Virus record (IMG/VR): IMGVR_UViG_2562617113_000019
Direction: 5' to 3' (one strand)
Origin: a virus
Lineage: Duplodnaviria; Heunggongvirae; Uroviricota; Caudoviricetes
Length of the DNA: 43,127 bases
Shown one piece after another: positions 9,001 to 12,000 of this stretch. Position 1 is the first letter of the stretch; each line of letters starts with the position of its first letter. Made by a program: the position numbers.

Positions 9001-12000
9001 AAATTGATGAGCCAGAAACGCCAGCAGCTTTGCTTAAACCACTTTGACTTAAGCCTACCTGCTTGCGTCTTTCTCTAATTCGTTGACCTAAAGTTTTCTC
9101 GTTCATATTTAGATATCTTAATAACCCTTGACTTGAGATTCCTTGAGTGATTAACATTGAGAAAACTCAATATTGGAGGTGCAATGTTTAAATCAGACGT
9201 AATTAATTATTACGGCACGAAAGCCAAAGTGGCGAAAGCTGCTGGCGTTGATCCATCTGCTGTTTCTCAATGGGGGGAACTGGTTCCTGAAGGCCGCGCG
9301 ATGCGTCTGCAAGAGGCATCTGGCGGGGAGCTTCAGTACGATTCAAATATCTATGACAAATATCGTAAGGCAAAGCGGGCGGGTAAGGGTATTCATGAAA
9401 ATCAGGCATGAGCACATTGAATCAGTGTTGTTAGCTCTGGCTGCCGAAAAAGGTCAGGCGTGGGTTGCCAACGCAATTACTGAAGAATATTTGCGCCAGG
9501 GGGAGAGTGAATTAGCCCTGGCGCCAGGCAAGGACTGGAACAATCAGCAAAACATCTATCACCGCTGGTTAAAAGGTGAAACAAAGGCGCAAAGGGAAAA
9601 AATCCAGAAGCTGATTCCAGCAATCCTGGCAATTCTTCCGCGCGAACTGCGACACCGCCTCAGCGTTTTTGACACCCTGGAACGTCGCGCATTACTGGCG
9701 GCTCAGGAAGCGCTGAATACGGCAATTGATGCACATGATGATGCTGTACAGGCCGTTTACCGGAAAGCGCATTTCAGCCGCGGTGGGTCTTCCGACGATT
9801 CTGTCATTGTTCATTAAGCAAAAGTTTTCATGCTGTTTGTGCTTATTCTAAGTCACCGGGCAGCATCATACGGGGCAATTATGGCCGCATTACCATACAT
9901 GCAACTGTACATAGCTGATTACCTGGCTGACACCATGCATTTGTCAGCAGAGGAGCACGGTGCGTATTTGTTGCTGATGTTCAATTACTGGCAAACAGGA
10001 AAGCCAATACCCAAAAACAGGCTGGCAAAAATTGCCCGTCTGACTAACGAGCGATGGGCTGATGTTGAACCATCTTTGCGGGAGTTTTTTTGCGATAACG
10101 GCGACGAATGGGTGCATCTTCGGATTGAGCGCGACCTTAAAAATATCGTTACAGCGCCAAGAGGGAAGAAATTACCAGAGGGAGAAAATTTATCTGAATA
10201 CAGGGGATACGTTTATTTCGTGACCAGCACGGAAATGGATACTGTGAAGATCGGATATTCAAAAAATCCCTGGGCAAGGCTTGGAGAACTACGACGTAGC
10301 TACGGTAGTAATCTTAGCGTAGTAGCTACGATAAAAACCGTAGAAAAATCGGAATCATCAATTCATGCATTGCTATCTGATTATCGAGTTAATGGTGAAT
10401 GGTTTGTTAAGAGTGAGTGTATTAAATCGTTAATAACACAAATCGTAGAAGGGAAAATAACTACCGTAGAAGCTACGAACAACTACGTTAGCAACTACGA
10501 AGTAGTTACTACAGTAGTTACTACGACAACTACAAATACAGATACAGATCTAAAAGAATTAAACCCCACACATAACGCGCGCGTGCGCGAGAGAGCTCCG
10601 ACCAGTGAGTCGAACGGTACGCCATCGCAGACAACGGAGCCCGAATATCTGGACGGCATGAGCGAACCCATCGGGAAATTTCCGATGACCGATGGCTGGC
10701 ATCCGTCGCCGGATTTTCGACGACGGGCTGCTCTGTGGGGAGTGGCTCTGCCTGAGCCGGAATTTACACCAGCTGAATTTGCAGCCTTCCGGGACTACTG
10801 GGCAGCGGAGGGGAAAGTGTTCACGCAGATTCAGTGGGAGCAGAAATTCGCCCGTCACGTAAATCACGTCAGGGCGCAGGTTAAACCAGTCAGCAAGGGG
10901 GTAAACCATGCAGCAGCACCAGGTGGCACCGCATCACGAGCAGTTCAGGAAATTCGGGCAGCACGTGAGCAGTGGGAACGTGAAAACGGATATATCAGCG
11001 ACGGAAACGGCCTGGAAGCTGTGGGAACTCATGGGGGAGGTTTATTCGAACCGCTGGACCCAGAAGAACGGGGCCGCACCTTCGAAGCTCTGGATTGCAC
11101 AGATTGGCGCGATGACTGAGCAGCAAATCCGGCAGGTCTGCCGCCAGTGCATGGACCGCTGCCGGGCGGGTGAAACATGGCCTCCGGACCTGGCTGAGTT
11201 TGTGGCGCTGATTTCGGAAAGCGGAGCCAATCCATTCGGTCTGACGGTGGATGCCGTGATGGAGGAATACCGCCGCTGGCGCAATGAGTCCTGGCGATAC
11301 GACGGAAGCGATAAATACCCGTGGTCTCAGCCTGTGCTGTATCACATTTGCCTCGAGATGCGTTCAAAGGGGATTGAGCGCCAGATGACCGAAGGGGAGT
11401 TAAAACGGCTTGCAGAATGGCAACTGACGAAATGGGCAAAGCATGTTGGTAATGGCCTGAGCATTCCGCCAGTCCGGCGACAACTGGCGGCACCCAAACG
11501 CCCGTCGGGACCAACGCCAATTGAGTTGCTGAAACAGGAATATGAACGCCGGAAAGCGGCTGGTTTTGTTTGAGTTGAGAAGTAATTTTTACCGGGAGGA
11601 AATTTTAATGGAGACCGTTTTTGACGCACTGAAAGCAATGGGAAAAGCCTCTTCCCAGGAAGTGGCTGCACGTCTGGGAATGACCCGGGATGAGGCGATT
11701 AATGAGCTGTGGAAACTGAAGCGTCGCGGGGAAGCTGACAACAAGGGCCCGATGTGGTGGTTGACTCAAACCGACGAAAACGCATCTGTGGCACAGGCTT
11801 CTAAAGTGACAGCGCAAATGCTGATCGAGGCGATTGAACAGCATGGCCCTAAAGCGGCTGATGAACTTGCACTGATATTCAGAATTACTTCCCGCAGGGT
11901 GAACTCATCGCTGGCTATGGCCATCAGCAAAGGTCGTCTGATTCGCGTAAATCAGAACGGTAAATTTCGTTACTGCCTGCCGGACGGTAATTTACCAGCA

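Follow-up and report, generated by a model that had tools for sequence, protein, structure and literature searches.

The window analyzed here is the complete 43,127-nucleotide (nt) DNA of the Caudoviricetes record IMGVR_UViG_2562617113_000019 in IMG/VR, in which a prophage replication initiator gene encodes an embedded T5orf172/GIY-YIG-type domain and carries two dense arrays of the pentamer CTACG. On the basis of its open reading frames (ORFs) and their Pfam and PHROG matches, the region is the early-right operon of a Rac-like lambdoid prophage (table 1); the initiator gene is overlapped out of frame by a P-like helicase loader gene, and a DUF1627 gene followed by a DUF977/Ren-like gene lies 3' of the latter. 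The chromosome of Escherichia coli strain N61, which is 99.6% identical, shows the same gene order in its PGAP annotation. The initiator start at 9881 is likewise the one given by PGAP for strain N61, and the relatives L088 and L089 also begin at MAALPY; an in-frame ATG at 9830, used in the Rac-SA53 annotation, would extend the initiator by 17 residues (MLFVLILSHRAASYGAI).

Table 1. Features of the replication module and its surroundings in the window.
Feature	Position	Strand	Evidence or remark
Replication initiator coding sequence, 412 amino acids (aa; DUF1376 + T5orf172 + DnaT-like domain + tail)	9881-11119	+	ORF list, Pfam, PHROG
DUF1376 N-terminal domain, aa 5-86	9893-10138	+	Pfam 1.9e-25
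T5orf172 cassette in place of Rac-type linker	10133-10536	+	Alignment with Rac-SA53, composition
T5orf172/GIY-YIG-type domain, Pfam match aa 109-176	10205-10408	+	Pfam 6.9e-10
CTACG/CGTAG array 1, 6 half-sites including palindromes CTACGACGTAG and CGTAGTAGCTACG	10289-10343		Motif count, relatives
Spacer between arrays, 100 bp, 33-36% G+C	10344-10443		Composition profile
CTACG/CGTAG array 2, 6 full half-sites and further CTAC/GTAG; encodes Thr/Val-rich peptide	10444-10533		Motif count, Tandem Repeats Finder
Shared A/T-rich junction, (A/C)AGAT hexamer repeats and CTAAAAGAATTAAAC	10534-10564		Sibling comparison
DnaT-like single-stranded DNA-binding domain, aa 267-333	10679-10879	+	Pfam 3.1e-17
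Initiator C-terminal tail, aa 343-412	10907-11119	+	Only in alleles partnered with P-like loader
Shine-Dalgarno-like AAGGGGG, 6 nt upstream of ATG 10908	10895-10901	+	Read from sequence
P-like helicase loader coding sequence, 221 aa	10908-11573	+	Pfam, PHROG, tblastn
Dual-coding overlap, 212 nt, P frame shifted one base relative to initiator	10908-11119	+	ORFs, relatives
CI-type repressor	8699-9157	minus	ORF list, Pfam/PHROG
P22-Cro-like gene	9184-9411		Upstream of initiator; ORF list, Pfam/PHROG
YdaT/CII-like gene	9395-9817		Upstream of initiator; ORF list, Pfam/PHROG
PD-T4-7	13092-14117		E = 6e-141
AbiH-like protein	14529-15506		E = 1e-23
SIR2_2 / PDC-S25 protein	17009-18517	minus	E = 7e-143

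The Initiator Contains an Embedded T5orf172 Domain

All three Pfam families matched by the initiator score above their curated cutoffs, and aa 263-333 additionally match solved DnaT C-terminal domains (PDB 6aep, E = 3.4e-20; 4ou6, E = 7.9e-19). The DUF1376-coding DNA is 98% identical to Rac-SA53 ydaU, and the DUF1376 of the window is ~98-100% identical to that of Rac-type alleles. When the window is aligned with Rac-SA53 ydaU, identity is 98% up to ~10132 and 94% from ~10537 onward; between ~10133 and ~10536, 404 nt of the window stand in for a Rac-SA53 linker of ~185 nt, and the cassette therefore represents a replacement of the linker, not a plain insertion. An earlier note on this DNA had described a YdaU-like initiator made longer by an inserted T5orf172 domain and linker; the domain assignment holds, but a simple insertion does not, and the added length has a second source in a different C-terminal module (DnaT domain and tail), which also extends the protein relative to K-12 YdaU. 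The G+C content of the cassette (33-46%) is lower than that of its flanks (47-62%). Its distribution in E. coli is sporadic: the cassette is present in only 10 of 5426 complete genomes, against a background of 862 (16%) with the Rac-type linker, and in 2 of the 80 IMG/VR loci with near-identical DUF1376, almost all others having the Rac-type linker.

A different in-frame insertion of ~115 aa occupies the same linker in eleven IMG/VR DUF1376 alleles (L092-L102; 382 aa, e.g., L092:2501-3649). It directly follows the TDKDLKTD repeat, and its motif '...GRIDIVVTDRNG...IELD...' resembles a restriction-endonuclease type; a Pfam scan of it returned no match. The existence of this second, unrelated insertion suggests that this linker is prone to acquire domains in frame.

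Membership of the cassette domain in the T5orf172/GIY-YIG superfamily is indicated by scores of 39.8 bits for PF10544 (cutoff 20) and 38.7 bits for PF13455 (cutoff 22.3). The motif residues GYVYF, KIGYSKNPWARL, His and GEWF are invariant in five lineages, and K123, N129, P130, R133 and W174 show no variation among 100 representatives, in which E173 is also almost invariant. As read from these alignments, the conserved GIY-YIG motif set is present (GxY-type first strand, KIG second strand, Arg, His/Tyr and the predicted catalytic Glu); the Glu of GEWF matches in position the residue whose mutation, E180A, inactivates the nuclease Odn (PMC8263062). In a structure model of the cassette (predicted local distance difference test score of 91) the predicted fold extends to ~aa 190 and its nearest structures are GIY-YIG nucleases; a profile search of PDB with the cassette gave no match.

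A word-indexed protein search with the cassette recovered only six proteins, and an exhaustive search of 1.84 billion representatives was used instead, which yielded 97 clusters (50% identity) at E <= 1e-10. The best 150 matches listed are mostly proteins of 300-430 aa in which the domain is internal, at ~aa 85-230. Among 100 representatives, Pfam detected DUF1376 in 13, DnaT in 4, Phg_2220_C (the lambda-O C-terminal domain) in 4 and Phage_rep_org_N in 1, whereas most have an un-named 'WxRxY...DxK...WxxRQ' N-domain belonging to the family of a GTCACGAC-bearing module described below. Although sporadic in E. coli, the domain thus lies internally and in frame in a protein family of at least 97 clusters, and is not a free-standing homing endonuclease gene.

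Two CTACG Arrays Form a DNA-Level Feature

Within 10289-10533 there are 19 CTAC/GTAG tetramers, compared with a window mean of 0.96 per 260 nt and 6 at the next-best place. Twelve CTACG/CGTAG pentamers fall into two clusters, 10289-10343 (array 1) and 10444-10533 (array 2). The half-site unit, (A/G)CTACG, occurs in both orientations, and two units frequently form a short palindrome whose halves are 0-3 nt apart. Tandem repeats of 22 nt (two copies, 10459-10501) and 12 nt (two copies, 10501-10524) were detected in array 2 by Tandem Repeats Finder; 22 is not a multiple of 3, and the 12-nt unit AGTAGTTACTAC is present once or twice, depending on the E. coli allele. The earlier note had pictured a linker at ~10290-10560 filled with palindromes. 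Its dense repeats are real, but the exact 8-mer GTAGCTAC occurs only twice (10296 and 10322), so that the repeat unit is the pentameric half-site and not the 8-mer; the placement in the linker fits array 2, with its Thr/Val peptide, but not array 1, which lies within the T5orf172-coding sequence (aa 137-155).

These repeats are a feature of the DNA and not a consequence of codon repetition: CTACG/CGTAG sites occupy all three reading frames, and permutation of synonymous codons yields 6.8 +/- 1.8 tetramers, with none of 5000 permutations reaching 19. For CTACG itself, 12 sites were observed versus 2.6 expected; the observed counts were equaled in none of 500 and none of 5000 shuffles. There are no DnaA boxes near the arrays, and the six in the whole window are at chance level. 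A second cluster of CTAC/GTAG at ~18064 was considered as a further array and rejected; it consists of scattered sites within the SIR2 gene.

Relatives with the cassette comprise IMG/VR L088 and L089, the Logan assembly L170, and Phytobacter, Pseudomonas (three), Leclercia and Kosakonia genomes (L171-L176). Their cassettes are 46-64% identical, and both clusters are present in all of them, with 14-24 tetramers per cluster region versus locus means of 1.4-2.6 per 260 nt. The block CCGTAGTAGCTACGATAAAAACCGTAGAAAA in array 1 is almost invariant across eight lineages, synonymous sites included, and the core block is invariant at synonymous sites among the Escherichia, Phytobacter, Kosakonia, Leclercia and Pseudomonas alleles. 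In the comparison of the window with L089 the share of identical codons among identical residues rises from ~40-55% to 11/12-11/13 over 10301-10360. Cluster 1 lies in some lineages over the first strand of the domain (GYVYF) instead of the third, and in L170 the ORF ends inside array 2 while the array and its ACAGAT repeats run on into non-coding DNA. In L175 (Leclercia adecarboxylata NCTC13032, 3001-3406) both arrays are kept (19 tetramers) and the frame around the cassette is apparently broken; ORF tracing gives only an 8-aa ORF there, which may reflect either a pseudogene or a frameshift in the assembly.

CTACG Arrays Accompany the Embedded Domain

We examined the DNA of 43 distinct genes with an embedded T5orf172 domain (IMG/VR; L192-L239). 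At least seven CTACG sites are present in 33 of them, at a density of 7.8 per kb in the genes versus 1.4 per kb in their flanks, and the CTACG-bearing genes include some of 59-69% G+C and span three or four unrelated N-domains. Where the N-domain is held constant, the repeats change with the presence of T5orf172: DUF1376 genes without it have no CTACG and four copies of TGTTCAA, and those with it have 9-12 CTACG and 0-1 TGTTCAA; genes with the WLRLW N-domain but no T5orf172 have one CTACG and 8-12 copies of GTCACGAC, and those with T5orf172 have 9-16 and 0-2, respectively. Judged from this 2x2 comparison, the arrays follow the T5orf172 domain rather than the N-domain across two unrelated N-domain families. 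In the more distant T5orf172 genes that are free-standing, CTACG is not enriched. A free-standing T5orf172 gene in Vibrio phage D67 (L003:1376-1867; Pfam 1.2e-12) lies directly upstream of the initiator and overlaps its start by 16 nt; this gene too is without CTACG enrichment.

Sibling Modules Share an A/T-Rich Junction

Among IMG/VR prophages, at least five different N-modules are attached to the part of the module from ~10530 (the C-module: A/T-rich junction, DnaT domain, tail and P). Every N-module has an array of its own, and the arrays of these siblings lie immediately upstream of the junction. The GTCACGAC array, which goes with the 'WLRLW' N-domain, has 10-nt spacing and two clusters, translates in three frames as 'CHDESRTCHD' and has a larger number of copies in L076; the CCCAAAAACGG array corresponds to the 'PKNG' repeats of one sibling N-module and also occurs in phiV10; the GATAAGGC array belongs to another sibling, and the TGTTCAA array to the Rac-type N-module (DUF1376).

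The (A/C)AGAT element of the junction consists of hexamer repeats and CTAAAAGAA, with a G+C fraction of 0.28-0.45, and an array adjoins it wherever it is found. It was found in the T5orf172, Rac, B and D modules, is kept with a different C-module and is non-coding in L170; the C-type representative L017 yielded no such element. Within 10534-10564 also falls the recombination junction to the C-module. The initiator is modular, with an N-module (domain and allele-specific array) joined to a C-module at the shared (A/C)AGAT element. The hexamer itself, which encodes TD/KD dipeptide repeats, behaves as a microsatellite, with two copies in the window (10538-10549), at least five in a Pseudomonas allele (L174:3394-3430) and ~11 in L212 (1868-1930).

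Several properties associated with iteron origins coincide within this gene: short repeats beyond both chance and the needs of the protein; an adjacent A/T-rich region, formed by the 100-bp spacer and the (A/C)AGAT/CTAAAAGAATTAAAC element; and co-variation of the repeats with the specificity part while the loader-facing part is shared, as seen among the five N-modules and in the 2x2 comparison. The arrays and the A/T-rich region inside the initiator gene probably form a lambda-style origin. The likeness to the lambda origin inside gene O that the earlier note had drawn is supported by the synonymous-site conservation, the non-coding extension in L170 and the allele-specific sibling arrays beside a shared A/T-rich element. 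No sequence-level mapping of oriJ of Rac was found in the literature searched.

The Loader Gene Overlaps the Initiator Gene by 212 Nucleotides

The P-like ORF matches Phage_lambda_P (PF06992) at 5.6e-16 (59.2 bits, cutoff 26) and PHROG 109, 'P-like helicase loader', at 9.6e-63 (from aa 18), and these scores together with its position directly after the initiator gene place it in the lambda P loader family. Public annotations start this gene at 11112 in strain N61 (PGAP) and Rac-SA53, and later as well in PPompW phages and Vibrio D67. Conservation indicates that the true start is 10908, which results in a 212-nt overlap with the initiator gene. All 67 unique related sequences retain ATG 10908 with its open frame, and nearly all of them also conserve AAGGGGG. 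In a tblastn search with the P-like protein, Vibrio phage sequences match from aa 1 (aa 1-132), and P of phiV10, whose N-terminus is not overlapped by an initiator, matches from aa 18. We rejected 11112 as the only start, as conserved P-frame residues lie upstream of it and aa 18-68 are homologous to phiV10 P. A start at 11031, which the earlier note had allowed as an alternative, is likewise excluded by the conserved P-frame residues ATETAWKLWE upstream and by the lack of a Met at that position in Vibrio D67.

The out-of-frame overlap of ~210 nt foreseen in that note is thus upheld, at 10908-11119 and with both frames conserved. The arrangement persists in four distant lineages, with overlaps of similar length in L089 (215 nt), L236 (200 nt) and Vibrio D67 (212 nt, where the GTAAACCATG context is also shared). 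When the window is compared with D67 across the overlap, similarity is significant both in the P frame (E = 2e-13) and in the initiator frame (E = 5e-6), whereas stops interrupt the third frame and those of the reverse strand. Among the 67 unique related sequences, nucleotide diversity is 3-5 times lower in the overlap (0.016-0.020) than upstream (0.099) and downstream (0.049). Variation in 10908-10993 tracks the third codon positions of the initiator and that in 10994-11116 the third positions of P, and codon identity with L089 is 8/8 to 9/9 in 10994-11113. By these comparative measures the overlap is genuinely dual coding. The window and Rac-SA53 share a run of 111 nt (11021-11131) at 100% identity, against ~94% in the rest of this region; the run corresponds to the latter half of the overlap and to ATGACTGA at the initiator stop codon.

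The C-terminal tail of the initiator has no counterpart in phiV10 or in initiators paired with DnaC/IstB-type loaders (L088, L171 and L176), and its absence where the loader is of the latter type assigns the tail to P. By analogy with the C-terminal domain of lambda O, we infer that the tail is the segment that contacts P; tail and loader N-terminus appear to be a co-inherited interface. PHROG 15931 (482 positions) matches both the C-terminal half of the initiator, at profile positions 150-347, and the P-like protein, at 259-482 (window 10211-11573); the two ranges overlap, which suggests that this family holds fused or mis-called ORFs across the dual-coding stretch. A programmed frameshift fusion of initiator and P, an idea prompted by this profile, was set aside, as no slippery site was noted when the sequence was read and there is no other evidence for it.

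A defence-type gene cluster occupies 13092-18517, directly downstream of the replication module (table 1).

A Candidate Origin within the Initiator Gene

We consider the chances slightly better than even that the window encodes a replication module on the lambda O/P plan, belonging to a Rac-like prophage, in which the origin lies inside the initiator gene and the CTACG arrays are iterons read by the cassette-encoded part of the protein. In such a module the arrays would be the iterons of the T5orf172 allele, read by the T5orf172 domain or its flanking helix. Initiator molecules would gather on both arrays and the adjoining A/T-rich repeats would melt; the DnaT-like domain would hold the single strand, and the C-terminal tail would recruit P with the host DnaB helicase. 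The overlap would lock the tail and the P N-terminus, probable interacting surfaces, into one piece of DNA that recombination could not split.

We also entertain, tentatively and as a less likely extension, that T5orf172/GIY-YIG is an unrecognized origin-recognition module, possibly nicking, that has taken over specificity from the N-domain in a large clade of initiators. It would constitute a portable cassette, with two CTACG arrays and (A/C)AGAT repeats, placed between unrelated N- and C-modules, and its intact active site may nick CTACG to open or prime the origin.

Several points weigh against the arrays being iterons read by the cassette. T5orf172 is known as a nuclease domain, and in Odn and homing endonucleases separate domains bind DNA (PMC8263062, PMC10448857), so that a sequence-reading role for T5orf172 would be unprecedented among its characterized relatives. 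The spacing and orientation of the half-sites are variable, unlike the regular 19-bp iterons of lambda. Approximately 10 of the 43 embedded-T5orf172 genes have no CTACG enrichment, nor does the gene for p19 of Myxococcus phage Mx8, which likewise contains an internal T5orf172, and among the sibling arrays TGTTCAA and GATAAGGC have little statistical strength when taken alone. With only 10 carriers among 5426 E. coli genomes, the allele is rare and may belong to defective prophages, and both the origin activity and the binding of the domain to CTACG are predictions.

Among other explanations, the one that survives best, though we regard it as improbable, is that a selfish T5orf172 cassette resembling a homing endonuclease has settled in a tolerant linker, has no replication role and uses the CTACG arrays for itself, for example as its own regulatory or recombination sites. 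T5orf172 genes do occur as homing-endonuclease-like elements near or inside essential phage genes (PMC10448857), and the free-standing T5orf172 gene of D67 abuts an initiator. The sporadic occurrence of the allele (2 of 80 DUF1376 loci), flanks that are 94-98% identical to Rac-type alleles, a G+C content below that of those flanks and the unrelated insertion in the same linker of L092-L102 would all suit a mobile element. However, the cassette removes the N-domain-specific arrays, so that candidate iterons would be lacking altogether if CTACG did not replace them; the architecture is old and widespread (97 clusters, with the domain at a constant internal position in most of the best matches listed) and has co-diverged with the initiators; homing endonucleases are normally without their own target inside the invaded allele; and the arrays adjoin the shared A/T-rich junction where that junction was found.

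A somewhat less probable alternative is an Odn-like weapon, in which the nuclease, tethered by the shared DUF1376, cuts the origin of Rac-type prophages and the linker of its own gene was swapped to escape cutting. ICP1 Odn couples a T5orf172 nuclease to an initiator DNA-binding domain and cleaves rival iterons (PMC8263062), and similar coliphage proteins exist (PMC10448857). The near-identity of the window DUF1376 to Rac-type alleles, the loss of the linker TGTTCAA copies from the window allele, the abundance of the Rac-type linker in E. coli (862 of 5426 genomes) and the intact catalytic-type residues are in keeping with this idea. Unlike Odn, however, the window protein is the sole initiator of its module, with every initiator part kept and P downstream, and cutting would account for the loss of the old arrays but not for the gain and deep conservation of the CTACG arrays; the weapon is moreover compatible with an origin in the gene, and the two are not exclusive.

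Finally, that the repeats are a by-product of a Thr/Val/Tyr low-complexity peptide or of a conserved mRNA structure, with no function in the DNA, is very improbable: array 2 does encode a repetitive TTVVTT peptide and the RNA of 10280-10545 folds with slightly greater stability than shuffled sequences do (z = -2.5), but the sites lie in three frames and far exceed synonymous shuffles, the 22-nt repeat is out of step with codons, the array enters non-coding DNA in L170, RNAalifold on eight lineages gave no meaningful covariation (term 0.07, with compensatory change in only 2 of 29 predicted pairs), the RNA pairs formed by the arrays are invariant motif letters, and there is no Rfam match.

Implications

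Much of this architecture has precedents. A lambda-type origin within the initiator gene and DnaT_C initiators with P-like partners are already known (PMC5509034), as is the fusion of T5orf172 to initiator N-domains in Odn (PMC8263062, PMC10448857), and Mx8 p19 is annotated as an initiator with an internal T5orf172. The literature searched yielded no report of the CTACG arrays and their association with embedded T5orf172 across unrelated N-domains, of the shared (A/C)AGAT element, or of a conserved overlap of ~200-215 nt between initiator and P-like loader.

Recognition of the origin in lambdoid phages is generally attributed to the winged-helix N-domain of the initiator. In the initiators compared here, the part that co-varies with the origin-like repeats is a domain of a nuclease family, known so far from homing endonucleases and the anti-satellite weapon Odn, and it does so in two unrelated N-domain families and many bacterial genera. 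If the proposed reading of the arrays by the cassette is true, it would represent a new way to specify, and perhaps to open, a replication origin, and would place selfish nucleases, weapons aimed at origins and true initiators along a single line of evolution. The order of two CTACG arrays followed by ACAGAT repeats also provides a DNA signature that may be used to predict origins in uncharacterized prophages. Additionally, the conserved 212-nt overlap implies that the P-like loader is annotated too short in public records, with 68 residues missing in the E. coli entries examined (strain N61 by PGAP, and Rac-SA53); the other annotated relatives examined (PPompW phages and Vibrio D67) likewise start the loader downstream.

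Comparison with Known Systems

In the lambda plan, iterons and an A/T-rich region lie inside O, between the N-terminal specificity part and the loader-facing C-terminal part, and O and P overlap by 4 nt. The window initiator gene shares the placement of its repeats between specificity and loader parts, beside an A/T-rich stretch; N-modules and repeats are swapped together, as among lambdoid phages; and a loader gene of the P family follows (Pfam Phage_lambda_P). It differs in having DUF1376 in place of the lambda O N-domain and a DnaT-like C-domain in place of Phg_2220_C, repeats that are 5-mer half-sites in both orientations and two clusters, an embedded GIY-YIG-type domain with one array inside its coding sequence, and an overlap of 212 nt where that of O and P is 4 nt. 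The location of ori-lambda within O is mentioned in PMC5509034.

The initiators of the phiV10/epsilon15 type and the domesticated DopC/DopE also combine an N-terminal DNA-binding domain with a DnaT C-terminal motif and are followed by a P-family gene (PMC5509034). Those of the phiV10 type, in contrast, have no nuclease domain, and phiV10 has no C-terminal tail and an overlap of 4 nt as annotated (19 nt from an upstream ATG); the DopC locus was reported to be without iteron-like repeats (PMC5509034).

ICP1 Odn and Odn-like coliphage proteins resemble the window protein in joining T5orf172 to an initiator-type N-domain in one polypeptide with a functional tie to the repeats of an origin (PMC8263062, PMC10448857). 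As an accessory weapon against a satellite, Odn attacks PLE, is without the rest of the initiator and targets rival iterons via RepA_N (PMC8263062), whereas the window protein is the full-length initiator of its own module, not an accessory distinct from it, and its arrays co-vary with T5orf172 and not with the N-domain. Closer in organization is Mx8 p19, an annotated replication initiation protein with an internal T5orf172 (aa 129-204) and a DnaC-like loader gene after it; p19, which is uncharacterized, has no DUF1376 or DnaT match in Pfam.

The nuclease domain of I-TevI prefers a CNNNG cleavage motif. Genes of the I-TevI type differ from the window initiator in being free-standing or intron-encoded, in having separate DNA-binding domains and in targeting the allele from which they are absent; CTACG conforms to CNNNG, a lead that may connect the arrays of the window with that cleavage preference.

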